A DNA stretch of 64,000 nucleotides from Antedon mediterranea (GCF_964355755.1 NC_092673.1:25912269-25976268), one strand, 5' to 3'; positions 2,702 to 49,350 are shown, counted from the stretch's first letter. Program-made: numbers and translations. The notes: a model not told the origin generated them from the letters alone.

Positions 2702-4305
2702 CCCCTTTCTCACAGATGTGCCTGCAATATACCGGTACAGTGCTGGCGTCGTGCCGGTATCGTTACCGGCATGCGATTTTTTTTTCCGTACGAGAGTTCC
2801 TCCATCGGTTCGTTTCGGACTCAATCGACTCTCTTCGGTATTCGGTAAAGTCAGCTCACTGATGCGTGACAACATAATACAATTTACATTTACAAACCGC
2901 GAGCTTACTTTCACACAGGCTCTCACAATAGTAAAATAAATCTACACTAATACGAGTTTTGATTTGATGACATTAATTAATAAATACTAGGCCTACTTAG
3001 TAATTACATTAAGAACCCAATAGCATATTGAAGATATTTAGGTCTACGACCCAATAGTAGGTCGTATCAGATATTATTTTTTGAAGTTGAACGACCTTTT
3101 GTCACGAACGAGAGGCTCTTTTTCTTATCGTTTATGGTATTGTAGCTAGCCCATGGCTAGGCTAGCTTGTGTAAGCCTATGCATGGTATTACTTTTGAAT
3201 TTAAAATGATTATGTACAGTAGGAATTCCTATGCACAGTGTATGTTTTTTATACCTTTTAAAATAATATTATTAAATTAATATTTATATTGTAAGGTAAT
3301 GGAAATTTTACGTTAAAGGTGTACGTATTAATTATCCCCAATCTTGAAAAAAAGATTTCAGACTTTTAATAATAGGCAACTTTGGAGTATAGGCCTACAA
3401 CTAATATTATTGTTTATTATATGTAATTTGGAAAATCATAAAAAATACATGCAAAGTAAAAAACATTCAATTACGGTACTGACAAGACTGCAATAGTACA
3501 AATACATTTAATAATAACACATTTTCCAGGAAGCTTATAATTATATGTGATACTATCATCAATTATTAAATTAACACGATATTAAACGCTTTATAAGCAA
3601 GCGTGTGTTTCTATACATTACAACTTACAAGAATACATGTTACTAATACTAGGCCTAAATGTATACAATTTTTCAAATGTTACACTTAAAAACCTGAAGA
3701 AAATTGTAATTTTCTTGATAAAAACATCTGTTAGTGTTACTTCTGTACATATAATTTCTAACCTACTACTTCATTTTATTAAAATAAAAAATAGTACTGT
3801 AGATGGAATGTACTACATTGAAGCACACGTACGTAGGGCTAGCTAGCTGGCCTAAGTTGCTAGTGTGACGACCAACAAAGTGCTGCTGCTGTGTGTGTGT
3901 GTTACTGTTTGTGAATCTGATGGTGTACATACATTGGTTTGTGGCTGCCTATACAGTATTATATTATTAAAATTCTAGGACTATTATTATTATTACAATG
4001 ACGTTCAGTACTACTATTAATATTTATTATTATATTTACAGTGAGTATAGTATTAGGCCTCTAGTATAGCCTAGTATGTATAAATTTGTCACTCGTGCAA
4101 AGAAGCTGCTCACGTTTTGTGGTTGCTGTCACGCATCAGTGAGTATCGGTGGCTTACCGAAGAGTCGATTGAGTCCGAAACGAACCGATGGAGGAACTCT
4201 CGTACGGAAAAAAAAATCGCTACCGGCATATACCCATTCTCATCGGACTATCGTGCCGGAAATATAACCGGTATATACCGGCTTTCTGTGAGAAAGGAGT
4301 CGGGC
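2702..4305. mobile_element. About 1.6-kb foldback/TIR element with about 170-bp inverted arms (2702-2870 and 4128-4305) around an AT-rich ORF-free core. Related terminal fragments (ttctcacaga...tctgtgagaaagg) lie at 4786-4990
   Basis: The arms are reverse complements. ORFs 2693..2926(-) and 4076..4267(+) from the track both contain SRLSPKRTDGGTLVRKKKS, which is an artefact of the inverted repeat. The termini are ccctttctcacaga / tctgtgagaaagg. Confidence 0.65.
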
Positions 4306-5359
4306 ATATTCGGCCAATAAAAAGTCTCTGACAAAATAATTATTGAGGGCGCCCTTTATTGTTATTGTTTTTGTCTAGCGATGATATGGCGGCGAATGTT
4401 AAGTTACAGATTATTATCTTCCTTTATAGCATATTTATGCAATACATGCTATGTACAGTATATTGTGCATATATTATACAGGTATAGCAATTAATTTGCC
4501 GTCATCGGCAATCTGTAAAACACCTTAATTAGAAGGCTGTAGGCCTACAATTTACAAGGCGACGAAAGGTCAGGCACCAACAAACAAAGAGCTAATGGCC
4601 TAGCCTAGCGGCCTATATAGATTATGCTACAAATTTCTTCTTGTCCCCTTATTTTAAGCAGCTCTCTTATCTCATTATCCCTCCAGTTCGACATTATTAT
4701 TGTTAATTGAATTGAATAGGCGCCAAAGTGATACACTTGACTGCGCAAGGTGTCAAAGCCTCGACGGGGAACCCCGGAATATAACGGCAATACGTTCTCA
4801 CAGAATGCCCGTCTGGCATTGCGGGGAATATCCCTAGAATATTACTAGGTCTAAAGCAGGTCATGTCGATGCCGGCATGGTGCCGGCATGATGCCAAGAC
4901 GACCCGTTCTCACAGAAAACCATACCGGCATGGTAATGGTATATTCCCGCAATGTTCCTGGCACACAACTCTGTGAGAAAGGGGCTCTGTAGGCCTACAT
5001 CTCCATTCCTATATTCTCCCAAATGCAGCCTACTCTTTCATATTCCATTATGCATCCCCCATCTTACATATTCCTCTTCACCAGCCCTACCACTTAGGCC
5101 TATTCTCCTCACTAATCGGATATCCTCCCCACCAAGGTGGTACCACCCCCACTAAAGTATGTATTAAGTATATTATTAACCGAATTGTTTTGTGACTGTG
5201 CAATTTGGTAATAAGTTACACTCTACATACATACAAAATATACATTTAAAAGTAGCACATCCAAATGCCAACTTCAAGTCAATGGCTACCAGATGTCTCT
5301 GTGAGACGGTTATTTGAACCAGTACCAGTATCACTTCACTACATATTCTACTATTCTGG

Positions 5360-5800
5360 TACACTGCATCCCCCAATCTTGTATATTCCACTTCACTATA
5401 GATCCCACCCATACCACTTATCCTCCCACTAAAATATAGGTATTCTCCCACTAGATATCCTCTGCGTCTTCTGAATTTGCCACCTTTACACTAAATATTC
5501 TACTATAGGTACTATTGCATCCCCAATCTTGTATATTCCACTTCACTATAGATCCCACCCATACCACTTATCCTCCCACTAAAATATAGGTATTCTTCCC
5601 ACTAGATATCCTCTGCGTCTTCTGAATTTGCCACCTTTACACTAAATATTCTACTATAGGTACTATTGCATCCCCAATCTTGTATATTCCCCTACACTAA
5701 AATACATCCCACCCCTTACCACTTATCCTCCACATTAAAAGCTAGATATTCCCCACATTAAATATCCTCTGCGTCCTTTGCATTTGCCAATACACTACAA
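5360..5800. repeat. About 150-bp tandem repeat, about 3 copies (gcatcccc(c)aatcttgtatattccacttcactatagatcccacccataccacttatcctcccactaaaatataggtattct...). A related degenerate copy lies at 4990-5160
   Basis: Units begin at 5368 and 5518, with a diverged third. Confidence 0.8.
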
Positions 5801-6289: not shown

Positions 6290-6610
6290 AATAACACTAA
6301 AGCCAAATCCATTAAAGGGACACTTTACCGTGTAATAAAACTAAAGCCAAATCCTATTATTAAAGGGACACTTTACCGTGCAATAACACTACAGCCAAAT
6401 CCTATTATTAAAGGGATACTTTACTGTGCAATAACACTACAGCCAAATCCTATTATTAAAGGGACACTTTACCGTGTAATAACACTACAGCCAAATCCTA
6501 TTATTAAAGGGACACTTTACCGTGCAATAACACTACAGCCAAATCCTATTATTAAAGGGACACTTTACCGTGCAATAACACTACAGCAAAACTATATTCA
6601 AGGGACACTC
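6290..6610. repeat. About 59-bp tandem repeat, about 5.5 copies (ctacagccaaatcctattattaaagggacactttaccgtgcaataaca)
   Basis: Direct reading. Confidence 0.9.
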
Positions 6611-7151: not shown

Positions 7152-7980
7152 TGGCGTCACCTTCGTAGAGGTTCGGGTCCCGAAGGCATCACCTTCATAG
7201 AGGTTCGGGTCCCAAAGGCATCGCCTTCATAGAGGTTCGGGTCCCGAAGGCGTCGCCTTCATAGAGGTTCGGGTCCCGAAGGCATCACCTTCATAGAGGT
7301 TCGGGTCCCAAAGGCATCACCTTCATAGAGGTTCGGGTCCCGAAGGCGTCAACTTTATAGAGGTTCGGGTCCCGAAGGCCTCACCTTCATAGAGGTTCGG
7401 GTCGCGAAGGCGTCACCTTTATAGAGGTTCGGGTCGCGAAGGCGTCACCTTTATAGAGGTTCGGGTCCCGAAGGCATCAACTTTATAGAGGTCGGGTCCC
7501 AAAGGCATCAACTTTATAGAGGTTCGGGTCTCGAAGGCATCAACTTTATAGAGGTTCGGGTCGCGAAGGCGTCACCTTTATAGAGGTTCGGGTCCCGAAG
7601 GCATCAACTTTATAGAGGTCGGGTCCCAAAGGCATCAACTTTATAGAGGTTCGGGTCTCGAAGGCATCAACTTTATAGAGGTTCGGGTCTCGAAGGCATC
7701 AACTTTATAGAGGTTCGGGTCTCGAAGGCATCAACTTTATAGAGGTTCGGGTCGCGAAGGCATCAACTTTATAGAGGTTCGGGTCTCGAAGGCATCAACT
7801 TTATAGAGGTTCGGGTCGCGAAGGCATCAACTTTATAGAGGTTCGGATCGCGAAGGCGTCACCTTCATAGAGGTTCGGATCGCGAAGGCGTCACCTTCAT
7901 AGAGGTCCGGATCGCGAAGGCGTCAACTTCATAGAGGTTCGGGTCTCGAAGGCATCAACTTCATAGAGGTCCGGGTCCCA
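7152..7980. repeat. 32-bp minisatellite, about 26 copies (ggcatcaccttcatagaggttcgggtcccgaa and variants)
   Basis: Direct head-to-tail reading. Variants are caccttc/caacttt and tcccgaa/tcgcgaa/tctcgaa. Confidence 0.95.
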
Positions 7981-9905: not shown

Positions 9906-10186
9906 CTACAAAAAAAAAATTTAAGTGAGAAGTGTTTAAAAAAAGTCTAGCTACCATTCAAATTGTTGGTGTTGTAAGCTGGGCGCGCAATATAGTTGAC
10001 ACAAAAATTAAATTGTATAGACAAGACGAGTGGGTGAGCCGGGCCACTGAAAATCAAAGCTATACAGGTTCAAGGCTCTCTTTAACCACTTTTCTGGTGG
10101 TTGAACAAGTATTCTCGGATAAGCACTTAAAACTAAAATTAACAGTAAAATTCCAGTGTGCACTTTAAGAACCCAGTTCATCTTTA

Positions 10187-10335
10187 AGCTCTGTCTACAC
10201 AATTAGTATTAAAAAAAAGTGTGATGTGCTCAAATATGGTGGTAATATGCCCAAATTTAGTAGTGATCATGTCCATATGGGCACATCACATTTTTAGTCG
10301 CGTGGAAGCGACTCTATAGTTCACTATGTCGGTCG

Positions 10336-15644: not shown

Positions 15645-16445
15645 TGGAAAAAAATGACAATGATGTGGGTATCAGTGGCTGGATCTCAATGGAGATACAA
15701 ATAAAATAAACTCTGTAAAAATGACAATAATGTGGATATCAGTGGCTGGATCTCAATCCAATGGAGATACAAAATAAAATAAGCACTGAAAAAATGACAA
15801 TGATGTGGGTATCAGTGGCTGGATCTCAATGGAGATACAAAAAAAATAAACACTGAAAAAATGACAATGATGTGGGTATCAGTGGCTGAATCTCAATGGA
15901 GATACAAAAAAAAATAAACACTGAAAAAATGACAATGATGTGGGTATCAGTGGATGGATCTCAATGGAGATACAAAAAAATAAACACTGAAAAAATGACA
16001 ATGATGTGTGTACCAGTGGCTGGATCTCAATGGAGATACAAAAAAAATAAACACTGAAAAAATGACAATGATGTGGGTATCAGTGGCTGGATCTCAATGG
16101 AGATACAAATAAAATAAACTCTGAAAAAATGACAATAATGTGGATATCAGTGGCTGGATCTCAATAGAGATACAAAATAAAATAAGCACTGAAAAAATGA
16201 CAATGATGTGGGTATCAGTGGCTGGATCTCAATGGAGATACAAATAAAATAAACTCTGAAAAAATGACAATGATGTGGGTATCAGTGGCTGGATCTCAAT
16301 AGAGATACAAACAAAATAAACTCTCAAAAAATGACAATGCTGTGGATATCAGTGGCTGGATCTTAATAGAGATATACAAAATAAAATAAACTCTCAAAAA
16401 TGACAATACTGTGGGTATCAGTGGCTGGATCTTAATGGCGATACA
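15645..16445. repeat. About 64-bp minisatellite, about 13 copies (aaaaatgacaatgatgtgggtatcagtggctggatctcaatggagatacaaa(t)aaaataaacactg), in PANK intron 3 about 200 bp from exon 3
   Basis: Tandem copies. The array ends ...caaaaaaaagcaaaaagctaaatcaaaacga. Single-unit relatives with the same tail lie at 28660-28710 and 56850-56935, so it is a dispersed element carrying an expandable array. Confidence 0.9.
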
Positions 16446-16663
16446 AAAAAAAGCAAAAAGCTAAATCAAAACGACTAAACAACCAGAAAAATTCATCTTC
16501 ACCTTTATCAGTGCAAGTTAATTCTTTGAATTAATTTTTTTTTTTACCATTTGTAAATATTGAATCGATTCTGTTGTTTTACTGCAAAATCAAATTTTTT
16601 TAATTAATAAATCAGAATGAAAATCATCAAGCATATTAACATTATATTACATATATAACATAC

Positions 16664-16914
16664 CTAGTTCCGGACACCCTACGGAATTTATCTTGTGACT
16701 CCACAACTAAAATGCTCACTCCTGATCCGATATTAACGACCATGTACGGATACGGGTCTCGGAAGTCAAAGGGTGTTTTAACGCTGTCTTCTAGATTTTG
16801 AGGATTCGGGTTTTTCCAATAATAACATTCATTGTTTATATGTTCATCAATAAAATGGATACCTTTGATCAAACAGTTTAATTCATCATGTTTTTGTAAA
16901 CTCATGTTCACTGT
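16664..16914 (-). CDS. PANK: Pantothenate kinase exon 3: TVNMSLQKHDELNCLIKGIHFIDE...NPYPYMVVNIGSGVSILVVESQDKFRRVSGT(S)
   Basis: This is ORF 16642..16911(-) from the track. Acceptor tttatctttag is at 16915-16920 and the exon ends ...ACT AG|GTATGT, carrying 2 nt. It matches human LHKLDELDCLIQG...NPYPMLLVNMGSGVSILAV...YKRVTGTS. Confidence 0.9.
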
Positions 16915-17367: not shown

Positions 17368-17497
17368 TCCTGTCTACACTATCAAACTTTATGTGATGTG
17401 CCCATATATGGACATGATGATGTCATATCACTACCATATTTGGGAATATCACTACTATATTTGGGCACATACCTCTTTTTTGATAGTGTAGACAAAG
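17368..17497. mobile_element. Hairpin MITE, family X (TIR gctctgtctacactatcaaacttt; internal palindrome gatgtgcccatatatgg...ccatatttgggcacatc), inside PANK intron 2
   Basis: The terminal inverted repeats ctgtctacactatcaaacttt and aaa..tgatagtgtagacaaagc are read directly. The same element recurs at six other places in the window. Confidence 0.8.
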
Positions 17498-17797
17498 CTT
17501 AAGAATGGCAAAGTGGAAGGTAGTCATTGTCACGTAACAATGATTTTATTTTGTCAGTGTTCTGCTCAGAAGAGCATCCAAAATGTTCCCATAATAAAGT
17601 TTATCAGGTGGTTTCATTCTATGGAAACACTTTACTGTACATGAACAATATTCACTCAATTGGAAAGTCAATCATTATCCATAACAACAATAGCCTCGTA
17701 TCATATTCAAATATTTGGATTTATTTATCAAATACACTAACCAGATTTTAGAAGGCCAAATTAAATTATACATTGTAGAATAAATAATAAAACTTAC

Positions 17798-18156
17798 TTC
17801 GTGAAATTCAGATTCAAATTTATAAGCACCGCCGCCCGTTGCATGAATAGTGTCCGCCAAGCTTCGTAAATTTTTGGCCTCTACCATTTCTAAAAATAGA
17901 TTCATACTTGCCGACGGAAAACGTATAAAATGTAAGGATCCTACATGGTCTAAAATCTGTATATTTTTCATTTCAAGGTGGACGTCCCTAATTCCTGTGT
18001 CGCCGTATGCAACGTTGGAAGTTAAATAATGACGAATGTTCTGCAACGTGTCCATCTCTATTTCTGGGTCATCTTCAGGACCAGTGACATCAGTAGGTTC
18101 AAAGTATACAAGTTTTGCCAGAGTTCCACCAATATCAACTCCAAACCATGGCATTG
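17798..18156 (-). CDS. PANK: Pantothenate kinase exon 2: (P)[20 protein letters not shown]...[16 protein letters not shown]
   Basis: This is ORF 17675..18154(-) from the track, trimmed to splice sites. Acceptor ttttctctag sits before CA-ATG and donor GAA|GTAAGT sits below 17798. It is strongly similar to the human PANK1/2/3 N-terminal core (PWFGMDIGGTLVKLVYFEP...IRDVHLE...LHFIRFP...[11 protein letters not shown]). Confidence 0.9.
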
Positions 18157-19739
18157 CTAGAGAAAAATATAATTGTTATTAGAACAAGAAGGTACAACTG
18201 AATCTTTTGTGCTTTAATATAAATAAAATATCTTTTATTTTGTAATATTTAAAATAATTTATTGGCCACAGTAGTAGATGACTGTAAATGTTTTGTATTT
18301 GATCCTACATTTCTATATGGATTGCATTTGTAGATGGATCTATCGATTACATGTGTATGTGTTTTGGATTGCATTTGTACATGTGTTTCTCTATGGTTCC
18401 TCAATGGTTCCTCAAAAGGGCATCTTTTATAGTATATCTATAATTAGTTTTATCATGCATTATGCAATATCTTGAAATGCATAATGCATACAGTAACCCA
18501 GTACATAAATTATGGGAGTACCAGTATTTGTTGCCGGTAGTAGTATTAGTAGTGTACATGGTGTGATCTATTCTAAACTATTAAAAAGTATTAAATGCTG
18601 GTTAGTTGCGTTTTTCTAATAGTTTAAATGAAACCGGGTCTGATCTACAATACAGTAAGATAATAATTTTAGGGAAAACGTTTATTGAAAATAACAACAT
18701 TTCTTTGTTTAGTCCAGTTTTCAAAATGTTTTACTGTTTTTACATATTTTGTTTGGTTATTACAGTATATTGTTTTTTGTATGTATTTTTATCGTGTTTT
18801 TTAACCTTAAGATACAAATGTAAATTACTAATTTATTTGACAATTAATTTGAACTTGAACTATAATTTATAACCTATAAAAAGAATAGGCGATTCCAACT
18901 GGTCTGTTTTGAGATCTACAGTTTCCCTCCTCGAACTCCTCGCTGTTTTTTATCTAAGCAGTGTGTGTAGATCTTTTGAGAGAGCGGTTTGAAGAGTCCG
19001 CAATAATTGACCAGTCGACTATGCCTATATTTATCACTGATGATAAGTTTTTGAAAATTGTAAAAACAGAAAAAATTGTATTCAATGACATAGGTAAGGT
19101 TTATTTAAAAAGGTGCCAGTACCTATAATAAATATGAAAATGAATTTATTCCAGTTGAAATTCAATGTGTGTAATAAGCTACCAGTAATAGTACTATCTA
19201 CACAAGAAGTAGGAGTTTATGAATGGCAATTGGCGTAATCGACTGGCAATTTCCGGTAATACTATTATAATTTATTTATTATTATTTATTATTTATTTTA
19301 TTTCAACAATATTTTACGAGGGTGGTCCGTCCAGCAGAAGCTGATTATTAGGGTGATATGATGATTTCAATAGAAATTGATAATGAAATGATAATTTCAA
19401 TCAATCCTCACCCCCCTATTTATGCAACATCACAGTAGATACTTTCTCATGGAATAAACAAGGGGCAACATTAGCCCACCACTATTTAAAATACACCGCT
19501 CCAAGGGGACATTGAGTTGGGTCCCAAAGCAAAGGTGTCCCTTCAATAGGGGTTTTACTGTCAACAAACTTCTCAACTATGCTAATAATGCTATTAGTAT
19601 TAAATCAAAAAAGAATGACAGATTCAAGTAAATGGGAATGTCGGAACCAATAACAGTTTGTAATGTTTTAATTTGATTTAGGCCTATAGAGTAGGTAGTA
19701 AGAAATACATTATAATAACAAGATTTTGGCTAAACTTAC

Positions 19740-20699: not shown

Positions 20700-21060
20700 A
20701 CTTGCTTATCAAATCAAAGCACAGTAAAGCAAAGGATAAAATTAATGTACGATCCAGTTTACCACTGTTCTCAACTATAGTAATTTTAGTATACTTGAGC
20801 ACAGTGATAAAGAATAGGATAAACTTAACAATATACAACAAATAGCATTAATGTACGATCCAGTTTAACACTGTTCTCAACTATAGACATTTTTGTATAC
20901 TTGAGCACAGTGATAAAGAATAGGATAAACTTAACAATATACAACAAAAAACATTAATGTACGATCCAGTTTAACACTGTTCTCAACTATAGTCATTTTG
21001 GTATACTTGAGAACAGTGATAAAGAATAGGATAAACTTAACAATATACAACAAATAACAT
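20700..21060. repeat. About 120-bp satellite, 3 copies (same family as 28020-28440)
   Basis: aaagcacagtaaagcaaaggataaaattaatgtacgatccagtttaccactgttctcaactatag... Confidence 0.85.
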
Positions 21061-21617
21061 TAAAGATGTATTGTCCCCCTGAACAAAAATTTTTTTTTTT
21101 TTAAAAGGCCATTTTAATGATACATAAAAGTTATTCACTTTGAAAAAAAATTGGATCAAAAAAAAAAATTATTTACCTTAGAAAATCGTAATTTAAAGTA
21201 AAAAATAGTCAACCGGAAGTCGGTTGGCTGGCAGCCAGCTGGCTTCCGGTTTAATTTAACCCTTGACCTGAATTAGCTTATGAATTATGCATATTGTATG
21301 ATTCTTGTGCGTGTATGTGACCTCTAGGTTATCAGAAAAAAAATACGACGTGATATGGCGAGACGACGATGTGGGAAAGTTCTGTAGTTTAACAACAAAA
21401 AAAACAACTCCTACTTGAAGAAAAGACTATGGCTAGGTCCTAGCAGATTGGTAAGTAAGAACTGTAGTTTCTATGGTGCAGCTTTGTTAGTTAGTACTAT
21501 AGGAAGCCTAGCTAGCCCATTACAGCTGTACTGGCTATCTAGTGTACTATCCCCTATCTATTGGCTAGGCCTAGAGTAGTAGCTAGTCTAGTAGTGGTAG
21601 TAGTACTGAATACAGGT

Positions 21618-23932
21618 CAACCCGTACCCATGCCAACTCGTACCCACCAACTCGTACCCAAATTTTGGCTTACTCGTACCCAAAATTTTGGCTGACCCGT
21701 ACCCATCATTGGCTGACCCGTACCCATCATTGGCTGGCCCGTACCCAAGTTTAATGCTATTTAAAGTATATTTATATTACATTTAAACCCAGTTTTATTA
21801 AATTTTTAGATACCAATCATATGTTCGATATTATAATGGCAAAAACTATTGACCTAAAATGTATAATAATATGTACAGACTCGTACGAAAAAAGCACAGC
21901 TTTCATCGTATTTCCGTACGTCGTATTTGGTAAAGTTAATACTTGAGGGCGCTGTTTTATATGGCTCTGTGGAAGATGTCAGTGGTCGGCTGTGCTGCAT
22001 TCTATTTTTTTTTCATTTATGAGTTATTAATCTATTATTTTCTACGAATAGTAGTACATGGAAATTGAAATACCCACTAGTCTGTGATGATGAAAACTTG
22101 AATTATTAAAAGTAAACATGAATATCTTTTATACATAATTTGTATTTTCATTTTATTTTACAGATAATGAAGTAATGTGCTTTTTGAAAATCGTTTTAAA
22201 ACGAATGGTTTTTGTTGTTTTGTTTTGCAAGTTTTGGAAAATAAAACTGTTTTAACATTTCGAAAATATTTAATACATTTTTAAATAGTCACTCGTATTT
22301 TAAAATCACGAAACTATTTAAGTGGATACCAGCCTCATTGCTGCTATGAGCATTTAGTAGTAGATTAGATTATTGCCGTTTATCTAGTATACAATGACGA
22401 TGTGAGAGTAATAATAAAAGGTAACTACTGTACTAACCTCCAATAATTTAACATTTAATTACAAACGACGACATTTGCTGTTATTACGTTTTCATTTTAT
22501 AATGATTATTACTGTATTATTATGACTAAAAACCGAAATAAATACTACTAAAACTTAAAAAAATCATCTTATCGCTGACAGATACGTAAGTACTCAGACA
22601 CGTTTATATTATTTTAGTAAATAAGACGACATCCGTTGCCATGGAAAAACGATCGTAGTTCATTTCATTTGTCTTATTTGACACATTATAGAATGCGTAT
22701 TTTTTTTTTTAAAGGGAATCCCTCGTCAGCAAAAACACGTAGCTGTAAGTTATTGAGGAAACATCTACCAAAAATGTTTAATTACCGTAAACAAACAGAT
22801 AATTTTACTGAATTATTTAAGAAAAAAAATAAATAGAAAACGATCATACGCCACATTGCGTTGCCTATTTTTGGACACACTACAAATGGACCCGTACAAA
22901 TGCGTTTTTTTTTTAAATAATAAAGAGGAATCCCCATTCAGCAAAAACACGTAGCTGTTATAGAAGAAAATCTGCCAAAATGTTTAATTGCCTTAGGCTA
23001 CAGTACGACAGTACGTGTATATGATCATTTCACTGAATTATTAATAAATAAAATATATGGAAAATGATCATACGTCATTACTAAGTCGTCTCTTTGACGC
23101 CGGCCCTATAAATGCGTGTTTTTTATAATTAAAGGTTAATCCCGGTCAGAAAAAACACGTAACACGAAATCTACGAGTAATTCGACCCCATAGCCCGGCA
23201 GGCTTTTTGCTTAAAACAGGGTGTTGTTAATTCAACCAATTTTAAATATACCAAATACAATAGAAATAATTACTTGATCGAATGTAATCAGGGAAGATAA
23301 TTAGAATAAAATAAAAGAATAAAAATTGATAAGTATAAAATTATACGTTGTTGGTACTTTACCTGGGCTTAATTGAATTGTAATACTAACTATACAACAG
23401 TTAAAATATTTTTTTTATTAATTAATGTTCTCTTACGTAAATAAAAAAGACACATCAAACATACGTTTATAAAACTATAATACTAGATTTAAATAAATGT
23501 TAACAAATATATGCCTAATTAAACGAAGTCTACAATCAAATCAATGGTCATTTTTATTAGCACACATTTCACCGAGACCTGTAAAATAAAAAAAACAATT
23601 TAAATATAAAAATATTCATACGGCAAAAGCATACCACTAGTTTTGCGCCGATCAAATCATTACAAGTAATTATTTAAATTGGGTACGAGTAGGCCAAATA
23701 ATGGGTACGAGTAAGCCAAAAATGGGTACGGGTAAGCCAAAAAATCGGTACGAGTAAGCCAAATACTTGGGTACGAGTAAGCCAAATATTTAGGTACGAG
23801 TTGGCATGGGTACGGGTTGGTTTGGGTACGGGTTAGCCAAAGTGGGTACGAGTTGACCAATTATTTGGGTACGGGTTAGCCAAGTTGGGTACGAGTTGGC
23901 ATGGGTACGGGTTGGTTTGGGTACGGGTTGAC
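21618..23932. mobile_element. Foldback-type element 1, about 2.3 kb. The arms (21618-21755 and 23671-23932) are built from 10-20-bp subrepeats of the ctcgtaccca / gggtacgag type. The interior carries three copies of a unit of roughly 215 bp
   Basis: The outer termini ggtcaacccgtaccc... and ...gggtacgggttgacc are reverse complements. The internal tandem units lie at about 22690-22780, 22890-22960 and 23100-23160 (…aaagggaatccctcgtcagcaaaaacacgtagctg…). Confidence 0.65.
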
Positions 23933-24009
23933 CAGCACCCGTAGTACTAGGCCTAGTTGTAGGCCTGAGTGAGGGTTCACCCTGAGTGAGTAGCAGGCCT
24001 AGCTAATAC

Positions 24010-26335
24010 TAATAGATACGGTTCTAGGACACCTACCCCCTAGACAGTTACCCCCCGGATGTTTACCACCCGGACAACTACCCCCTTAGGACAACTACCC
24101 CCCGGACAACTACCCCCCGGACAACTACCCCCTTAGGACAACTACCCCCTTAGGATAACAACCCCCCGGACAACTACCCCCCGGACAACCACCCCCTTAG
24201 GACAACTACCCCCTTAGGATAACTACCCCCGGTCAACTACCCCCCGGTCAACTACCCCCCGGTCAACTACCCCCCCCCCCCCCATCCAAAAGTAGACAAA
24301 TATATAGGACCGGTTTCTGTAAAAATGAAATCATCTGTTTTTAACGGGTGTTTCGAAACTAGAGATCCGAGACCAGAGACCTGAAACGAGACCCAATACG
24401 AAAAGGGAGACCTATATTTGGGTCTCCCTTTTCGTATATTATTAGGGTCTCCCTTTTCGTATAGTGTGGTCTCTCTTTTCGTATAGTGGGGTCTCCCTTT
24501 TCTTATAGTGGGTCTCCCTTTTCTTATAGTGGGTCTCCCTTTTCGTATATTTGGGCCTCCCATTTTGTATATTTGGGTCTCCCTTTCGTATAATTGGGTC
24601 TCCCTTTTCGTATATTTAGGTCTCCCTTTTCGTATATTAGGGTCTCCCTTTTCGTATAGTGGGGTCTCCCTTTTCGTATAGGGGGTCTCCCTTTTCGGTT
24701 CTAGGACACCTACCCCCTAGACAGTTACCCCCCGGATGTTTACCACCCGGACAACTACCCCCTTAGGACAACTACCCCCGGACAACTACCCCCTTAGGAC
24801 AACTACCCCCTTAGGATAACAAACCCCCGGACAACTACCCCCCGGTCAACTACCCCCGGTCAACTACCCCCCCCCCCCCCATCCAAAAGTAGACAAATAT
24901 ATAGGACCGGTTTCTGTAAAAATGAAATTGTTTTTAACGGGTGTTTCGAAACTAGAGATCCGAGACCAGAGACCTGAAACGAGACCCAATACGAAAATGG
25001 AGACCTATATTTGGGTCTCCCTTTTCGTATATTATTAGGGTCTCCCTTTTCGTATAGTGTGGTCTCTCTTTTCGTATAGTGGGGTCTCCCTTTTCTTATA
25101 GTGGGTCTCCCTTTTCTTATAGTGGGTCTCCCTTTTCGTATATTTGGGCCTCCCATTTTGTATATTTGGGTCTCCCTTTCGTATAATTGGGTCTCCCTTT
25201 TCGTATATTTAGGTCTCCCTTTTCGTATATTAGGGTCTCCCTTTTCGTATAGTGGGGTCTCCCTTTTCGTATAGTGGGGTCTCCCTTTTCGTACGTGGGT
25301 CTCCCTTTTCGTATATTTAGGTCTCCCTTTTCGTATTGGGTCTCTGGTCTCTGGTCTCGGGTCTCTAGTTTCGAAACACCCGTTTTTAACCGATTATTCT
25401 GTTTAACAGCACGCTAGACCCTAGATGTGCTAGATTTAAAGTACCGTATTTATTGAAAAAACGGCCTGGGCTGTTTATTGTTTAGGTGGTTTTTAGGTGG
25501 ACATTTATTGGAAGAAAGTTGTTTATTCAATGGGAGGGGGTATAATCTAATGGAAATAGACGCCGATTATTCCATATGATGTTTCATGGGAGTGACATGG
25601 TCACCGTTTATTTGAGGGGAATTTATTTAAAGATCGACGTTTATTCGGTGAGTGAACATTGAGGTCAAATATCAAAAGTGATATTATTCTTCAAGTGTAC
25701 AAAAATACATATATGACAAATTTGAGACAAATATTAATTCTTTTAAGACCAGTGGTTATCGAAGCATTGTCCTGACGCAAAAATTATTATTATTATTAGC
25801 GATCCCAGTCTTTACAGTAAATACAGGGAGTACTATATAATACGTTCGACTATCCTATGATCATGTGTGACGATCTTCAGTTTATACCAGGCTATATTTA
25901 TGTTCAATCTTTTACTTTTGTTTACAATAATGAATAGTAATTCGTCAAAGTAACGAATTAAAATATAGTTATTAATTCCTATTATACACTGTTGCAGAGT
26001 CAGGTTGTTGAATGGTCTGGGTGGTTAGGGTGTTCTAAAGGGATAGTTTTCTGGGTGGTAATTGTCCGGGGGGTAATTGTCCGGGTGGTAATTGTCCGGG
26101 GGGTAATTGTTCCTAGGGGGTAATTGTCCGGGGGGTAGTTGTCCAGGGGGTAGTTGTCCTAAGGGGGTTGTTGTCCTAAGGGGGTAGTTGTCCGGGGGGT
26201 ATTTGTCCGGGGGGTAGTTGTCCTAAAGGGGTAGTTGTCCTAAGGGGGTAGTGGTCCAGGTGGTGGTTGTCCGGGGGGTAGTTGTCCGGGGGGTAAATGT
26301 CCAGGGGGTGAATATCCGGATACGATAGATACAAC
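24010..26335. mobile_element. Foldback-type element 2, about 2.3 kb. The arms are made of the 14-bp subrepeat ggacaactaccccc (24030-24290 forward, 26040-26330 inverted). The interior carries a tandem duplication of about 690 bp (24013-24705 and 24706-25395) holding (gggtctcccttttcgtata)n arrays bracketed by a shorter inverted repeat of about 70 bp
   Basis: gatacgg..ccggatgtttaccacccggacaactaccc at 24013 pairs with the reverse complement of ...gggtaaatgtccagggggtgaatatccggatacg at 26300-26335. ORFs 24267-24563(-) and 24860-25156(-) from the track are identical repeat translations (IRKGRPT...). The inner inverted pair is 24350-24420 against 25330-25395. Confidence 0.6.
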
Positions 26336-28019
26336 TTGTAAGCCTTATTAATAGTTATTGCCAACCTAGCTTTAAATAGGATTAGGCCTATAACATGCAT
26401 CTGTGAGCATGGAGTAAGGAATAAGGTTTTAGCATGGAGGTATAAAAATAAAATATTTTATACCTCCATGATGGTTTTATTGTGACTTGTGTGAATTTCG
26501 ACACCACCAACTCGTCTTATTTTTAGTATAATACTATAATATTAATAAGAGCAGCGAAACTCAAAAAGCGAAAACTTGTGAATGGCTGCCAAAAATAGAA
26601 AATAAGGTCACCACCAGGACCAGGAGAGATTATGGTGCTTGGTTTTTCCTTCATGATTAATTAGATTTTAATGCTAATATAAATTTGTGAAAATTGTAAC
26701 TAGGCCTATACTGTACATCCAATAATGTAATTATTTTAGAGAAAATGACCAAATAATCTAAGTTGAATATTTTTTGGAATGTGTACTTTACAGTACTTAG
26801 TACCGTTATGTTGAAAATTCTTCCAAAGCAATAACGTTCAAACCAACATTCACACAATTAAACTTTTTATGTACATATTTTAATAAATAATGTCTTTCTT
26901 TTAATAGGTATTAACACACTTGAATGAACAATATGAGCAAGTAGTGGAAAATGGTGAAGAAATCAACACAAAATGTGGTAGCAACATTCACAATATTTAT
27001 TTGAACGTTTCTTACTATGACACTTTAAAATGGATGAACAATCACAGAAGACAAGCTATTGCTGTAATGCCACAATCAACACATCAATTAATAGTTGAAA
27101 ATAAATTGTCAACAATAATGCAGAAATTCAATGAAATATACTAGTAATTAACTCATTTTTTACTGTACTGTACTGTAAATCTTCACACATTAAAATTATG
27201 GTGATTTTATTTCATGTACTGTAGTAGCATTTTTTTATTTATTTAATGCTGTATACAAATGTTATTGCTCTAATTATGAAAACTATACAACATTTTAAAA
27301 GCTGGAAAACAACCAACACATTTGCCTAATGCTTTATGATAGTCATCCAATATTTATCTTGTGTTCCACTACCGAGTCTACTGCCAGTTGCCTTTAAAAT
27401 GCTGTATGGGTGTAACTTCTGTTCCAGTCTTCATTAGCTTAAGTCTATAAATTGAAAAACAATGATGTATAAATACAAAAGTCAAATAGAAAAGTTAAAT
27501 ATTTCACAATTTATTGCATACATATAATTATTATTTCTGTACATGAATCTGAAGTTTTCAATTTGGGGTACTAATGTACAGTAAGGAATCCCTGAAAAGT
27601 GCATCTCCTCCCTAAAAAGGCCTAGTCTAATTACTAGTGTTTTCGTTTTGGTTGCTATCAACAACAATCTATTCTACCGTCAACTTCTTTGGTACTGTAT
27701 GCTGATCATTTTCCAAATGTTCGTTTTTTGTCATCAGTTAGTCTTTTTTAGACTTTAAAATTAATTCGAGCTCCAAATGTATATCAGTGGTACATCAACA
27801 TAGTAGGCCTATTTCCTGTAGCTAGTTGTGGAGTGATGGCTTAGCTAGGTGAGTACGACATATAGGACCTAGCTAGGCCTCAAAGTGGGTTCCCGTCTAC
27901 TTTTCTGACCCGATTATCTGCCTGCCTACAGCTGCTGCTACACTACACTACACAGTAGTAAACTACAGTACTAACTAGGACTAGGCCCTACTAGATAGTA
28001 TTAGTAGAAGTAGGCTTAT

Positions 28020-28440
28020 ATTACAACAAATAACATTAATGTACGATCCCGTTTTACACTGTTCTCAACTATAGTCATTTTGGTATACTTGAGCACAGTG
28101 ATAAAGAATAGGATAAACTTAATAATATACAACAAATAACATTAATGTACGATCCCGTTTAACACTGTTCTCAACTATAGTCATTTTGGTATACTTGAGC
28201 ACAGTGATAAAGAATAGGATAAACTTAACAATATACAACAAATAACATTAATTAATGATCCCGTTTAACACTGTTCTAACTATAGTCATTTTGGTATACT
28301 TGAGCACAGTGATAAAGAATAGGATAAACTTAACAATATACAACAAATAACATTAATGTATGATCCCGTTTAACACTGTTCTAACTATAGTCATTTTGGT
28401 ATACTTGAGCACAGTGATAAAGAATAGGATAAACTTATTG
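28020..28440. repeat. About 120-bp satellite, 3.5 copies, inverted relative to the 30240-32330 array
   Basis: caacaaataacattaatgtacgatcccgtttaacactgttctcaactatagtcattttggtatacttgagcacagtgataaagaataggataaacttaacaatata. Confidence 0.9.
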
Positions 28441-29429
28441 CAACTTGTCCATGTCGTATTCATCTACAAATAAAGTGTCTATTACCGTACTTTTAAAAAT
28501 CTATTTATATCAATACCTATCAACGTATGTACGTGTGCATATTATATATACAAAAATATATACATCAACATAAATGTCATATCATCTACAGTCATTAGTG
28601 TTATTTCACCTTTAATATTAGTAAATCCAAAGTATTTAATACTTAAATAATAACAATGCTGTGGTCTCAATGGAGATACAAAAAAAAGAAGCGAAAAGCT
28701 AAATCAAAACGAAATGTGCTAATGCGTATAGATATGCTGAGTGGTTTCCGAGAAATATGAGTACGCATAATATGGCCTTACGGAAAAGTAATACATACCA
28801 GGTCCCCAAAAATAAGACAAATAGATATGGAAACAGTGCAATCCCGTTTCTCACTCGCTGCCTCAACAGTATTGATTAAATAATAAAAGAAAATAAATGT
28901 ATAATGTAACCAGATATTAATTAATTTGACATATAGGCCTAGTAGAAATTTCTTGAATTTGACTCAATTTATTCTTAATTCTCATTTAATTTTGTATTTA
29001 ATGTTTTTGTAAATGTATAATTGTAATTATTTAATTGTCTGAAGTCGACTTTAATTAAGAAACCAATGTAAATACTGTACTGCAACTTAAATTTAAGATT
29101 ATATTTTTATACTGTAATTAAGTAATAATGTATATACTATATCCTTGCAATAAGACTATATTTTTTTAACTTTATGTTTACATTTACATATATTTTGTAA
29201 TTGCGATAATTTTGTTTAGGCCTAATGATGACTATTACTTTACTTGTCTTTTGAATGTATATTGTCCCTTACCATGCAATTCAGCAGATTTGCTGCCAAT
29301 TGGTTTGTTTTTAATAAAGAAAGAAAGAAAGAAAGATAAAGTAAAACAGACAGAAAAGTTAGCAGAGTTTTCGGGCAACACTAGCCCTTCATCAGTGCAA
29401 GTGAGGGTACCTGTACAAGATAGTGTTAT

Positions 29430-30230
29430 TTAACGTTTAGTCGATTTATATCAATACACTCATCAACATATGTACATGTAATTCACGTCTACAATCAATA
29501 GTGTTAATTCCACTTTTAAAAGTTTTATTTATATCAATATACTCATCAACATATGTACGTGTCCACGTCATATTCATCTATAAATATTAGTGTTATTTCA
29601 CTTTTAAAAGTCGATTTATCAATATACTCATCAATAAATGTACTTGTCCACGTCATATTCATTTACAAATCAGTGTTATTTCACTTTTCGAAGTCAATAT
29701 CAATATAGGCCTACTCATCAACATATGTACGTGCAATTCACGTCATATTTATATATGATCAATAGTAATAGTGTTATTTCACTTTTAAAAGTCGATTTAT
29801 ATCAATATACTCATCAACATTATGTACCGTACGTGTCCACGTCATATTCATCTACAAATATTAGTGTTATTTCACTTTTAAAAGTCGATTTATATCAATA
29901 TACTCATCAACATTATGTACCGTACGTGTCCACGTCATATTCATCTACAAATATTAGTGTTATTTCACTTTTAAAAGTCGATTTATATCAATATACTAAT
30001 CAACATATGTACGTGTCCACGTCATATTCATCTACAAATATTAGTGTTATTTCACTTTTCAAAGTCGATTTATATAAATATACTACTCATCAACATAATG
30101 TACGTGCAATTCACGTCATATTTATCTACAATCATTTGTGTTAATTCCACTTTTAAAAGTCAATTTATATCAATTACTTATGAACATATGTACGTGTCCG
30201 CGTCATTCATCTAGAAATATTATAGTGTTA
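29430..30230. repeat. About 90-bp tandem repeat, about 9 copies (aaaagtcgatttatatcaatatactcatcaacat(t)atgtac(cgtac)gtgtccacgtcatattcatctacaaatattagtgttatttcactttt)
   Basis: ORF 29638..30144 from the track is its periodic translation, so not a gene. Diverged copies lie at 28440-28640. Confidence 0.85.
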
Positions 30231-30239
30231 TTATGTTTT

Positions 30240-32330
30240 TCATATTATCACTGTGCTCAAGTATATGAAAATGACTATAGTTGAGAACAGTGTTAAACAG
30301 GATCGTGTACATTAATGTTATTTGTTGTATATTGTGCTCAAGTATACCAAAATGACTATAGTTGAGAACAGTGTTAAACGGGATCGTACATTAATGTTTT
30401 TTGTTGTATATTATTAAGTTTATCCTATTCTTTATCACTGTGCTCAATTATACCAAAATGACTATAGTTGAGAACAGTGTTAAACTGGATAGTACATTAA
30501 TGCTATTTGTTGTATATTGTTAAGTTTATCCTATTCTTTATCACTGTGCTCAAGTATACCAAAATGACTATAGTTGAGAACAGTGTTAAACGGGATCGTA
30601 CATTAATGTTTTTTGTTGTATAATTTTAAGTTTATCCTATTCTTTATCACTGTGCTCAAGTATACCAAAATGACTTTAGTTGAGAACAGTGTTAAACGGG
30701 ATCATACATTAATGTTATTTGTTGTATATTGTTAAGTTTATCCTATTCTTTATCACTGTGCTCAAGTATACCAAAATGACTATAGTTGAGAACAGTGTTA
30801 AACGGGATCGTACATTAATGTTATTTGTTGTATATTTTTAAGTTTATCCTATTCTTTATCACTGTGCTCAAGTATACCAAAATGACTATAGTTGAGAACA
30901 GTGTTAAACGGGATCGTACATTAATGTTTTTTGTTGTATATTGTTAAGTTTATCCCATTCTTTATCACTGTGCTCAAGTATACCAAACGACTATAGTTGA
31001 GAACAGTGGTAAACGGGATCGTACATTAATGTTATTTGTTGTATATTGTTAAGTTTATCCTATTCTTTATCACTGTGCTCAAGTATACCAAAATCACTAT
31101 AGTTGAGAACAGTGTTAAACGGGATCGCACATTAATGTTATTTGTTGTATATTATTAAGTTTATCCTATTCTTTATCACTGTGCTCAAGTATACCAAAAT
31201 GACTATAGTTGAGAACAGTGGTAAACGGGATCGTACATTAATGTTATTTGTTGTATATTATTAAGTTTATCCTATTCTTTATCACTGTGCTCAAGTATAC
31301 CAAAATGACTATAGTTGAGAACAGTGTTAAACTGGATTGTACATTAATGCTATTTGTTGTATATTGTTAAGTTTATCCTATTCTTTATCACTGTGCTCAA
31401 GTATACCAAAATGACTATAGTTGAGAACAGTGTTAAACTGGATCGTACATTAATGCTATTTGTTGTATATTGTTAAGTTTATCCTATTCTTTATCACTGT
31501 GCTCAAGTATACCAAAATGACTATAGTTGAGAACAGTGTTAAACTGGATCGTACATTAATGTTATTTGTTGTATATTGTTAAGTTTATCCTATTTTTTAT
31601 CACTGTTCTCAAGTATACCAAAATGACTATAGTTGAGAACAGTGTTAAACTGGATCGTACATTAATGTTTTTTGTTGTACATTTTTAAGTTTATCCTATT
31701 CTTTATCACTGTGCTCAAGTATATACCAAAATGACTATAGTCGAGAACAGTGTTAAACGGGATCATACATTAATGTTATTTGTTGTATATTGTTAAGTTT
31801 ATCCTATTCTTTATCACTGTGCTCAAGTATACCAAAATGACTATAGTTGAGAACAGTGTTAAACGGGATCATACATTAATGTTATTTGTTGTATATTTTT
31901 AAGTTTATCCTATTCTTTATCACTGTGCTCAAGTATACCAAAATGACTATAGTTGAGAACAGTGTTAAACGGGATCGTACATTAATGTTTTTTGTTGTAT
32001 ATTGTTAAGTTTATCCTATTCTTTATCACTGTGGTCAAGTATACCAAACGACTATAGTTGAGAACAGTGGTAAACGGGATCGTACATTAATGTTATTTGT
32101 TGTATATTGTTAAGTTTATCCTATTCTTTATCACTGTGCTCAAGTATACCAAAATTACTATAGTTGAGAACAGTGTTAAACGGAATCATACATTAATGTT
32201 ATTTGTTGTATATTGTTAAGTTTATCCTATTCTTTATCACTGTGCTCAAGTATACCAAAATGATTATAGTTGAGAACAGTGTTAAACTACATCGTACATT
32301 AATGTTATTTGTTGTATAGGCCCTATTGTT
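30240..32330. repeat. Satellite of about 17 tandem copies of a unit of roughly 120 bp (tatcactgtgctcaagtataccaaaatgactatagttgagaacagtgttaaacgggatcgtacattaatgttatttgttgtatattgttaagtttatcctattcttt)
   Basis: Head-to-tail copies with point variants. The same unit occurs in opposite orientation at 28020-28440 and 20700-21060. Confidence 0.9.
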
Positions 32331-43150: not shown

Positions 43151-44282
43151 CAATGAATATGTTATGTTGAGACAAGTTTAACTTCTAATTTTGATCCCTA
43201 ATTGTTGATTATGAAATGTCATTATGAAATGATATATTTTAATAATAAAAGAAAAAAATATATAGGCCTAATAAGATCAGAAATAAACATGGATAATGGG
43301 ATACAGAGACAATGTAAACGGTGGCAATCAGACCTACTCATTTGGGACTGTAATATACAGTAGAAGTTGCCCCTTTAAAACACCCTTTAAAATCAGCACT
43401 GCTGACTCTTATGACAGCCCCTGCATCTAGTATCTGCCTCAGACGTATTGGCTAATGTCTTTCCTCTGGTAAAGGTGGGCATTGAACGAGAGAAGCCCTT
43501 GGTCAATATTTTGACCAGCCAAAAGGTGCTTTAAATAGTCATTCAGATGAATGTAAGACTAATTGACATTGTCGTTTACGACAGAAGTCGGCCATAAGAA
43601 TTCTGGGATTTCAAAGGTGTTTAATTAGGGTTTCACTGGATCTAACATCGCTAAAAGTGATTATTATCCTAAATAAGCTCAGTCGAAGTCTGGAATGTTT
43701 GGGTCTATCGATATACGACTAATAAAAACATAATTTCACTTCACCCAGCAACAAAACAAATAAATAAATAGCACAGAGTCATGTTGTTGGAAAGTTGGGT
43801 CAGGTCGTTTTAACCATCACCGCCAATGACCTTCCCAATTACCCATTTCAAATCGCATTAATTATGCCTCGGGTAAATTAATTTTCTTCAAATTAATGCC
43901 GTTTGTCAATGTCCTTAAATGAACTCTCAATTTCTTTTTATTTGGTCATCCTATAAGCCCACAGTATAGTTACTTGATTTCCCTACATGGTCATCATCTC
44001 CACATCTAAAGGCATACTGTGAAAGTAGGGCGATATCGGAACCCTTAAAACCCGTTATAATACGGGTTTGGAAATATGCCGATTGTAGTTTATGAATTCT
44101 ATGAAAATTGTTACGGTGTCCTAAATAGCATAATATTTTTTTATTTAATAGTTATTGATTGTGTCGATTGCACATCTTAATGGTTATATTAACTGTAATG
44201 ATGCTATAGTGACGTCGGAATAAATTATGTACAGATAATTATGATAACAATTAAATAATGATGAAACAAGCTATAGACAACT

Positions 44283-45076
44283 AGGATGTGATTTTTATCA
44301 CTGGTGCTGCAATAACAACCTGAAACTAAACATAAAGAAAACAAAAGAAATGCAAATTGATTTTAGGAAAATTAAAGAACCCTTAGAACCTCTGATTATA
44401 AATGAAAATGAGATTGAAGTAGTAAATGAGTACAAATATCTGGGTTGTATAATTGACAATAAGCTAAATTGGATAAATAATGTAAATAAAGCCGCATGCA
44501 AAGCCAACCAAAGGATGTTTATTTTAAGAAAAATGAAGTACCTACAAATTGACAAAACTATACTTAAATTGTTTTATAACTCTGTAATTCTCAGTGTAAT
44601 ACTTTTTTGTAATGTTTGTTTTTATGGTAATACAATGCAAAAAGATAAAATTAAACTTAATCGAATAGGAAATAGAGCAATTAGACTAGTAGGAGAGCAC
44701 TTACCTGATGTTGAATCCTTGTATAAAGAAAATGTGTTAAAAAAAGTAAAAAGTATCATTGATGATGAAACACATCCTCTTCACAAACAATTTGCTCTCA
44801 TGAATTCTGGCATAAGACTACGTGCACTTAATACCAAAACAAAACGGTTTAGGTGCTCGCTTGTACCTAATGCTATACACTTATATAACTCCACAGTACA
44901 AAGGTAAAATGTAACCGATAATTTTTATCTAATTTTAACAATTTTTAGCCTCTTAACTTTTTGTGTGTGTTTTTGTAAATTGTATTTTATATTTTTGTAT
45001 TTTGCCAGTTTTCAAATCACATTTCTGTTTTTTAAATGGACAATAAAGTATATATGACTATGACTATGACTATGAC
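44283..45076 (+). mobile_element. 5'-truncated non-LTR (LINE; CR1/L2-like) retrotransposon 3' fragment: reverse-transcriptase C-terminal/thumb region (ORF 44350..44907) plus 3' UTR ending in a (GACTAT)n microsatellite
   Basis: The translation contains ...NNLKLNIKKTKEMQIDFRK...YKYLGCIIDNKLNW... followed by LFYNSVILSVILFCNVCFYGN. These are the usual LINE RT downstream motifs (LSxNxxKTK...F, KYLGV..D..L.W, LY...L.Y....W). The frame is closed upstream, so the element is 5' truncated. A tatgactatgactatgactatgac tail at about 45050-45076 is typical of a CR1-like 3' end. Confidence 0.7.
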
Positions 45077-46338: not shown

Positions 46339-46453
46339 TTTAATATGTGATGTGCCTGTGGATGATGATGTCATATTACTACCCTATTTGGGCATATTAT
46401 TACCATATTTGGGCATATCACACATTATTTCTCAATCTAGTTTGACAGAGCTT
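46339..46453. mobile_element. Family-X MITE copy (right TIR degenerate)
   Basis: agctctgtctacactatcaaactttaatatgtgatgtgcc...tttgacagagctt. Confidence 0.7.
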
Positions 46454-46646
46454 AATAAAATAATGAAAGTAAATATGTTGACTTAATGAATGTGAATGAT
46501 ACTTTAAAAACATTCTACTGTTGATGCTTATGATGAATTAATGATATACGTGTGATTAAGTTATTGAATTATTAAATTATTGAATGTTTGAATTCCATGT
46601 GGGGGTGATGGAATTTAGCGTACGTGTAAGTAAAGATCATCTAAAT

Positions 46647-48639: not shown

Positions 48640-49350
48640 GTTTTTTTTTAGAGTGGGTTACTATTTTAGAAGGAAGGGTTACTATTATCGTAGTGGGTTA
48701 CTATTAGGCCTACTAATCTTAAATTAGGCACATGAAAATAGTACGGTAACCCACCTCCAACTGTTCCGGTCAGCAACTCATAGCAAAAAGAAAAAAAAAC
48801 AGTACGAATAAACAAATTTGGTTGAACTCAAAAACACTCAATCCTCCACACTCCCAAAAGTTTTTGTGATTCTAATAGTAACCCCATGGGTTACTATTTG
48901 TGAAAACAATCCCCATGGGTTACTATTAGAGTAGTGGGTTATTATTATACATTGACTTATAAGGTGGGTTACTATTAGAAGGAGGTTACTATTAGAGTGT
49001 GTGTTACTATTAGAAGGAGGTTACTATTAGAGTGTGTGTTACTATTAGAGTAGTGGGTTATTATTATACATTGACTTATAAGGTGGGTTACTATTAGAAG
49101 GAGGTTACTATTAGAGTGTGTGTTACTATTAGAAGGAGGTTACTATTAGAGTGTGTGTTACTATTAGAGTAGTGGGTTATTATTATACATTGACTTATAA
49201 GGTGGGTTACTATTAGAAGGAGGTTACTATTAGAGTGTGTGTTACTATTAGAGTAGTGGGTTATTATTATACATTGACTTATAAGGTGGGTTACTATTAG
49301 AAGGAGGTTACTATTAGAGTGTGTGTTACTATTAGAAGATTTACGGTATA
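48640..49350. repeat. About 90-bp tandem repeat, about 5 copies, built from gggttactattag / ggttactattagagtgtgtgttactattag submotifs
   Basis: ORF 49094..49381(-) from the track is its periodic translation. Confidence 0.85.

Follow-up and report, generated by a model that had tools for sequence, protein, structure and literature searches.

The DNA considered here is a window of 64,000 nucleotides from Antedon mediterranea (GCF_964355755.1 NC_092673.1:25912269-25976268), AT-rich animal DNA with about 32% GC. Between positions 21608 and 26324 it carries three non-autonomous class II foldback-type transposons, namely two large ones that stand next to each other (element 1 and element 2) and a third that is nested within element 2. 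The superfamily is most likely Mutator-like (Phantom/Muta/Tm1 type), an assignment that is a best guess, and we place the probability of this reading at about 0.8. The original prediction had proposed two adjacent foldback-type elements of about 2.3 kb each, with arms built from short tandem subrepeats, and this architecture is confirmed far beyond chance. Two large elements are present as proposed, but the total is three, with the nested one at 24939-25381. The limits first given (21618-23932 and 24010-26335) were near the true ones and are refined by the flanking repeats to 21608-23940 and 24020-26324.

Anatomy and flanking duplications of the elements

Element 1 measures 2333 bp and element 2 measures 2305 bp, the limits of both being set from flanking direct repeats, which are read as target-site duplications (TSDs). 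Element 1 is made up as follows (nt, nucleotides; aa, amino acids):

21600-21607, unstranded: left TSD copy, GTAGTACT, an exact 8-bp direct repeat lying 7 nt outside the first arm unit, symmetrically on both sides
21608-21755, plus strand: left end, consisting of GAATACA (7 nt, non-inverted), GGT and 7 subrepeat units
21756-23671, unstranded: AT-rich, non-coding middle, with no stop-free segment >71 aa and no Pfam match
23672-23940, minus strand: right end, consisting of 13 subrepeat units, ACC and the terminal 7 nt AGCACCC
23941-23948, unstranded: right TSD copy, GTAGTACT, an exact 8-bp direct repeat

Element 2, including the nested element with its terminal inverted repeats (TIRs), has the following parts:

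24012-24019, unstranded: left TSD copy, ATAGATAC, an exact 8-bp direct repeat flush with both ends
24020-24275, plus strand: left end, consisting of GGTTCTA (7 nt), GGA and about 15 GGACAACTACCCCC units
24020-24696, plus strand: extra copy of the left part of element 2, with left arm, spacer, and the left TIR and 13 units of the nested element
24697-24875, plus strand: left terminus and arm of element 2 in their second, canonical copy, 10 units
24930-24938, unstranded: left TSD copy of the nested element, GTTTTTAAC, a perfect 9-bp repeat flush with both TIR tips
24939-25381, plus strand: nested element of 443 bp, foldback- or MITE-like (MITEs are miniature inverted-repeat transposable elements)
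25382-25390, unstranded: right TSD copy of the nested element, GTTTTTAAC, a perfect 9-bp repeat
25391-26014, unstranded: unique non-coding middle, with no Pfam matches and no long open reading frames (ORFs)
26015-26324, minus strand: right end, consisting of about 18 units, TCC and the terminal 7 nt GGATACG
26325-26332, unstranded: right TSD copy, ATAGATAC, an exact 8-bp direct repeat

A search for flanking TSDs thus returned exact 8-bp copies at both large elements. With random position pairs drawn from the same window as the null, an 8-mer match equally close to both ends of element 1 occurs at a frequency of about 0.003, and the corresponding values are about 0.003 for element 2 and 0.001-0.004 for the nested element, whose TSD GTTTTTAAC is also found at 24337-24345, in the extra copy of the left part of element 2. 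In elements 1 and 2, 7 non-inverted nt separate the TSD from the first unit, which begins with GGT or GGA.

The subrepeats that build the elements are far more frequent than expected: GGACAACTACCCCC has 32 matches with at most 1 mismatch (0.00 expected), TGGGTACGAGTWRGCC has 17 with at most 2 mismatches (0.04 expected), and the 19-mer GGGTCTCCCTTTTCGTATA has 24 (0 expected). Within the window each type is confined to its own element, and in elements 1 and 2 it lies on opposite strands in the two arms. Self-comparison of the window on the minus strand shows that the repeat structure is truly inverted rather than merely direct; as ordinary shared satellites, the arm units were not found at other loci in the window, and the termini are defined to the base. 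The units of elements 1 and 2 have a heptamer, GGTCAAC, in common, but two arrays can be expected to share such a match by chance, and it was not used as evidence.

In element 1 the arms measure 141 bp (21615-21755) and 262 bp (23672-23933), in close agreement with the unequal lengths of about 140 and 260 bp that had been predicted, and they are 79-83% identical to each other over 114-149 nt. The right arm is the longer one because its outer block of ~95 bp is tandemly duplicated (period 95, 2.1 copies at 23723-23929). When the units are anchored and stacked, the core AC[CT]CGTACCCA (AC[CT]CGTACCC) is present in 20/20 units and nearly invariant, and the spacer is variable; unit size rises from 14-16 bp on the outside to 20-23 bp on the inside, the left-arm spacing being 16, 14, 22, 23, 21 and 21 bp. 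Three units of ~215 bp had been proposed for the interior, of which two are clear; they are diverged and lie at about 22640-23290, but the third is alike only over its first ~90 bp.

The arms of element 2 measure 251 bp (24025-24275) and about 300 bp (26015-26319), and the same self-comparison returns its second left arm at 24702-24872 (171 bp). Arm-to-arm identity is 82-87% over 224-254 nt. The unit core GGACAAcTACCCCC is near-invariant and followed by a variable spacer; the left-arm periods are 15/17 bp, with higher-order periods of 47 and 64 bp. Runs of 5-6 C (G on the other strand) recur every 15-17 nt in these arms (24027-24275, 24704-24871 and 26040-26309), and such runs may be prone to forming G-quadruplexes or i-motifs in addition to hairpins, judging by sequence.

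The nested element has TIRs of about 67-72 bp that pair from the first base, start with GGGTGTTTCGAAACTAGAGA and are 87.5% identical over 72 nt; they contain one inverted 22-mer as well as a run of (GGTCTC)n. The body of the element consists of about 15 tandem 22-mers (GGGTCTCCCTTTTCGTATA plus 3), with a near-invariant core, GGTCTCCCTTTTCGTATA, and a variable spacer. The 70-bp inverted repeat that had been seen to bracket this array is present, but it represents the TIRs of a separate nested element with its own 9-bp TSD. Across the duplicated region the inner inverted repeat is 24346-24417 / 25315-25381, and the corresponding pair in the self-comparison is 24329-24417 / 25315-25398.

Large inverted repeats in an assembly may also stem from chimeric or foldback long reads or from collapsed repeats, and it is true that long-read errors can yield palindromes and that the near-perfect internal duplication of element 2 (see below) could in principle be assembly stutter. 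Palindromes of that kind are near-identical and point-symmetric, whereas the arms found here are diverged (79-87% identity) and unequal, with unique middles of 0.6-1.9 kb between them, and the duplicated copies are set apart by deleted units, a 4-bp indel and substitutions; an assembly artefact is hence extremely improbable.

An extra left end inside element 2

The 690-bp tandem duplication that had been noted in element 2 does exist, but it is better described as a second copy of the left terminus of the element. The duplicated segments are 24020-24696 and 24697 to about 25289, with 300 nt at 100% identity, and when 24012-24700 is aligned to 24689-25345, nothing distinguishes them except missing arm units, a 4-bp indel and 2-3 substitutions. 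The second copy begins with GGTTCTAGG; it shares its starting base with the outer 5' terminus of element 2, which provides independent support for that terminus. The junction, ...CCCTTTTC|GGTTCTAGG, lies inside a 22-mer of the nested element.

By our own estimate, a random duplication breakpoint would fall within 1 bp of the terminus in about 1 of 1000 cases, and the event is therefore read as transposase-related; the duplicated left end suggests a recent transposase-mediated event. It could have arisen in two ways. Either a second copy of the element (or a single left end) would have inserted into the 22-mer array and later been trimmed by recombination between identical copies, or the extra left end would stem from an aberrant transposition of the one-ended or sister-chromatid kind.

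A bolder interpretation is that the near mutation-free second left terminus is the footprint of a very recent aberrant transposition, by an active transposase and with a Phantom-type end signature; this we hold to be possible but doubtful. If it were true, a foldback/MULE-type transposase (MULE, Mutator-like element) would currently be active in this genome, and the asymmetric 7 nt followed by GGN and a unit array, which is common to these elements and the nematode family Tm1, would represent a conserved Phantom-type end signature across phyla. Such an end signature would permit superfamily assignment from non-autonomous copies alone.

Folding, coding capacity and search for further copies

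The capacity to form hairpins that had been predicted for the elements was recovered in silico, where the left arm pairs with the right one at a minimum free energy 16-31 standard deviations below shuffles (z = -16 to -31; single DNA strands, arms with 100-nt flanks, mononucleotide-shuffled controls).

The view that no intact transposase ORF is present also holds. All stop-free stretches >71 aa in the interval are translated arrays, and a Pfam scan of its ten longest non-array stop-free segments gave no match near threshold and no intact or decayed transposase. In the rest of the window, the same scan of the 20 longest open segments outside arrays returned pantothenate kinase (PANK), NeuB and a weak match associated with reverse transcriptase (RT), and no transposase. 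The 177-aa stop-free translation of the 22-mer array had no match in a search of protein space.

At the nucleotide level, 21064-27000 had no match in the rest of the window. For the element 1 unit, metagenome contigs contained 61 isolated 18-mer matches, all of them single, which is chance level, and no arrays; the double unit of element 2 was not found in metagenome contigs or prokaryote genomes, the element 1 unit and the 22-mer were not found in viral contigs, and the TIR of the nested element was not found in the genome contigs searched. A string search of the literature for the units and for the 106-bp satellite described below found nothing.

The lack of a second copy of any element in the window and the collections searched is one of two points in favor of a non-mobile origin, according to which local inverted duplications of minisatellites arose when replication switched templates or palindromes formed, and the 8-9-mers on the flanks are coincidental. 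The other is the great abundance of tandem arrays and inverted satellite blocks in the region, for example the 106-bp satellite at 28022-28437 / 30228-32315, which has no clean TSD. Such an origin does not account well for three unrelated families that each have their own inverted arms and an exact, flush duplication, a coincidence with a joint probability on the order of 1e-7 or less. In addition, one element lies cleanly inside another, the second left end begins at the terminus base, and the arms, being 79-87% identical and unequal in length, are not fresh palindromes. A non-mobile origin is accordingly very improbable, and mobile elements are preferred.

Superfamily assignment and comparison with known foldback systems

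Foldback elements constitute a structural class that has arisen in several superfamilies (PMC4079207, PMC3169594, PMC3573991), and published accounts describe them by long TIRs that are repetitive inside, arms of unequal length, a middle that varies and does not code, and 8-10-bp TSDs (PMC4079207, PMC3169594, PMC5225508). The elements conform to this description: elements 1 and 2 have arms of 141-300 bp that comprise 7-19 units and are inverted at the two ends, unequal arm lengths and non-coding middles, and the TSDs of the three elements are 8, 8 and 9 bp. The TSD is 8-11 bp for MULEs in general and 8-9 bp in the animal Muta families (PMC5225508, PMC6446971). Features of MULEs found here are these TSD lengths together with TIRs >100 bp that consist of a terminal motif and tandem subterminal repeats with a period of 14-23 bp, which somewhat exceeds that of Muta. 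MULEs are mobilized by a DDE transposase (PF10551), which may or may not carry a FLYWCH finger.

The closest documented layout is that of Tm1, a Mutator/Foldback family of the Phantom type from Meloidogyne root-knot nematodes, which has TSDs of 8-10 bp, an asymmetric 7-bp motif, GGA, units of 13-15 bp and unequal TIRs; few Tm1 copies encode a FLYWCH+MULE transposase, most are non-coding, and nested insertions occur (PMC3169594). Shared with the elements described here are the TSD, an end-specific 7-bp motif outside the inverted repeat, the 3-bp GGA (GGA in element 2, GGT in element 1), variable units of ~14 bp, TIRs of differing length, non-coding copies and nesting. Yet Tm1 TSDs are mostly 9 bp, as opposed to 8 bp in elements 1 and 2, and the terminal motifs of Tm1 (A1 CGGTTAA/CGGATAA, A2 CCTACCC) differ from GAATACA/AGCACCC and GGTTCTA/GGATACG. 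Furthermore, the Tm1 unit CGATTCAGTATCCGC is unrelated to the units found here, its purine-rich inner motif D GGGAAAAGGGGA was not seen in these elements, and the units of element 1 grow to 20-23 bp inward. Membership of Tm1 sensu stricto is hence rejected, as the layout alone is common, and motifs and units are unrelated.

In Aedes aegypti, the MULE families Muta1-Muta14, described as 'type 2 foldback', have TSDs of 8-9 bp in 14/14 families, and most of their TIRs exceed 100 bp and consist of an 8-10-bp terminal motif with about 9 subterminal repeats of 9-15 bp; non-autonomous derivatives share the TIRs alone and have variable repeat numbers and unrelated interiors (PMC5225508). The TIR of Muta1 comprises a 10-bp terminal motif and nine 12-bp subterminal repeats, and it has been shown experimentally that more repeats lead to stronger transposase binding and that donor cleavage requires the terminal motif plus a repeat, while end joining requires the terminal motif only (PMC5499845). 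In their layout, the elements described here resemble the Muta families in TSD length (8-9 bp), TIRs >100 bp and a terminal motif followed by tandem repeats with a conserved core of ~12-15 bp and short spacers; their arms exceed those of Muta in length (141-300 bp, 7-19 units) and have diverged further from one another.

In Tetris from Drosophila virilis the long modular TIRs likewise contain tandem repeats, the non-coding middle varies, the TSDs measure 8-10 bp, and the TIR repeats have been linked to satellite arrays (PMC4079207). However, the repeats of Tetris are ~220 bp, compared with 14-23 bp here. In general features, the classical elements FB of Drosophila (9-bp TSD, hierarchy of 10/20/31-bp units) and TU of sea urchins (15-bp outer repeats) are similar too, with long modular TIRs that hold tandem repeats and a non-coding middle that varies. 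The original prediction had named FB and TU as models; among documented systems, Mutator-type foldbacks (Tm1, Muta) come closest, rather than specifically either of these.

An alternative is that the elements are foldback-shaped non-autonomous members of another superfamily with 8-bp TSDs (hAT, P/Galileo-like, Merlin, Zisupton or similar), whose repetitive TIRs would be convergent. Both hAT and P typically have 8-bp TSDs, and the element 2 TSD ATAGATAC fits the hAT target consensus as commonly given (nTnnnnAn). Elements of hAT type combine their 8-bp TSD with short TIRs (10-25 bp) that end in 5'-YARNG, and to this consensus the four termini GAATA, GGGTG, GGTTC and CGTAT do not conform; there is also no short perfect TIR at the tip, the outermost 7 nt being not inverted. 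The foldback architecture did arise independently in several superfamilies, Galileo of the P superfamily being an example (PMC3573991, PMC3169594). Galileo, from Drosophila, resembles the present elements in its foldback-like long TIRs, with tandem repeat numbers that differ between the ends, and its repeats carry secondary binding sites for the THAP-type transposase, but it has 7-bp TSDs, units of ~210 bp and a known P-type transposase (PMC3573991). The 8-bp TSDs found here thus differ from those of Galileo, although they are compatible with P. The 9-bp TSDs of the nested element and of a further element at 2773-4220 (see below) suit the 8-9-bp range of Muta better than hAT or P, and an asymmetric 7-nt motif followed by GGN and units is documented for a MULE-type family. 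Taken together, another superfamily is unlikely, and a Mutator-like origin remains the preferred assignment.

Several observations weigh against the Mutator-like reading. Transposase sequence was found neither in the elements nor in the window segments scanned, and the superfamily rests on TSD length and end architecture. As to the former, an 8-bp TSD fits hAT and P as well; as to the latter, the 7-nt terminal motifs are not inverted and differ in sequence from those of Tm1. An AGT-rich, low-complexity stretch adjoins the left TSD of element 1, so that a chance 8-mer is somewhat likelier there than under the window-wide null. For none of the three families was another copy found elsewhere in the window, in metagenome, viral and prokaryote contig collections or in protein space; these collections do not contain this genome, hence empty results are expected and say little either way.

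Proposed mechanism and implications

In the proposed mechanism, a DDE-type transposase supplied in trans would have cut at the terminal motifs and integrated each element by cut-and-paste. Staggered target cuts of 8, 8 and 9 bp, followed by repair, would have left the flanking direct repeats. In elements 1 and 2 the ends consist of 7 nt and GGN, followed by an array of 14-23-bp units, each with a near-invariant core of 12-14 nt and a variable spacer. By analogy with the Muta1 MULE, the terminal motif would be the site of cleavage and strand transfer, and the repeated cores would act as extra transposase-binding sites that strengthen binding and are required for donor cleavage. Slippage and unequal exchange would shift the number of units, and it is this drift that would make the arms unequal.

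The clean insertion scars and the fresh duplication of a terminus imply that a transposase of this class is active in the genome or was so until recently. Foldback-type elements drive inversions, deletions and the birth of satellites. The value of the present elements is mainly for the annotation of this genome, as their precise termini are useful for a repeat library and for locating the autonomous partner; they add families to a class that is already described and change no concept.

Genomic setting and other repeats in the window

The coding features recognized around the elements are the following (LINE, long interspersed nuclear element):

17678-18175 and 16645-16914, minus strand: PANK exons (PF03630), with a best database match for the exon at 71% identity
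33130-33495, plus strand: NeuB/sialic-acid-synthase-like exon (PF03102)
44248-44904, plus strand: C-terminal part of a LINE RT, whose relatives carry PF00078 and whose best database match is 48% identical

The PANK and NeuB-like genes are divergently oriented, and the roughly 15 kb between them hold all three foldback-type elements as well as the 106-bp satellite and are crowded with tandem arrays. The three elements are thereby placed between two divergently oriented housekeeping genes, and their clustering there could reflect a preference for insertion near genes, as reported for MULEs. From the 48% of the best RT match, the host lineage appears to be poorly sampled in databases. An Rfam scan of the whole window gave no match at gathering thresholds.

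At 2773-4220 lies a non-coding element of 1448 bp (flanked span 2764-4229) with TIRs of about 100 bp, the first 60 nt of which are 100% complementary, and a perfect 9-bp TSD, TACCGGCAT, flush with both ends. It resembles a young non-autonomous transposon of the Mutator-like type, and its youth and 9-bp TSD show that transposons of this TSD class have been active in this genome.

The 106-bp satellite occurs in three blocks (20718-21085, 28022-28437 and 30228-32315). The last two are mutually inverted, with 416 vs about 2090 bp, and enclose a middle of 1.8 kb that includes a 93-bp array (29414-30232). As their outer edges start in the same unit phase (TACAACAAATAACATT), the arrangement is foldback-like; no convincing TSD was seen for this inverted pair. 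That 21064-28021 might be one large insertion into the satellite was considered and rejected, since the unit phase at 21085 is not continued at 28022.

Minisatellites are unusually abundant in the window. Well-conserved tandem arrays are present at 5337-5789 (151 bp x3), 6290-6609 (48 bp x7) and 7166-7979 (32 bp x25, locally 50% GC), and further ones at 15649-16452 (67 bp x12) and 48919-49336 (119/84 bp). An AT-rich inverted repeat at 1082-1140 / 1457-1515, with 59-bp arms that are 316 bp apart, may be a MITE; no clear TSD was seen for it, and one of its arms also matches 63817-63873. Lastly, a dispersed repeat of ~110 bp, similar to a short interspersed nuclear element or a MITE, is present in four copies in both orientations (10184-10295, 17391-17502, 46342-46455 and 51588-51694), one of which adjoins the first coding exon of PANK.

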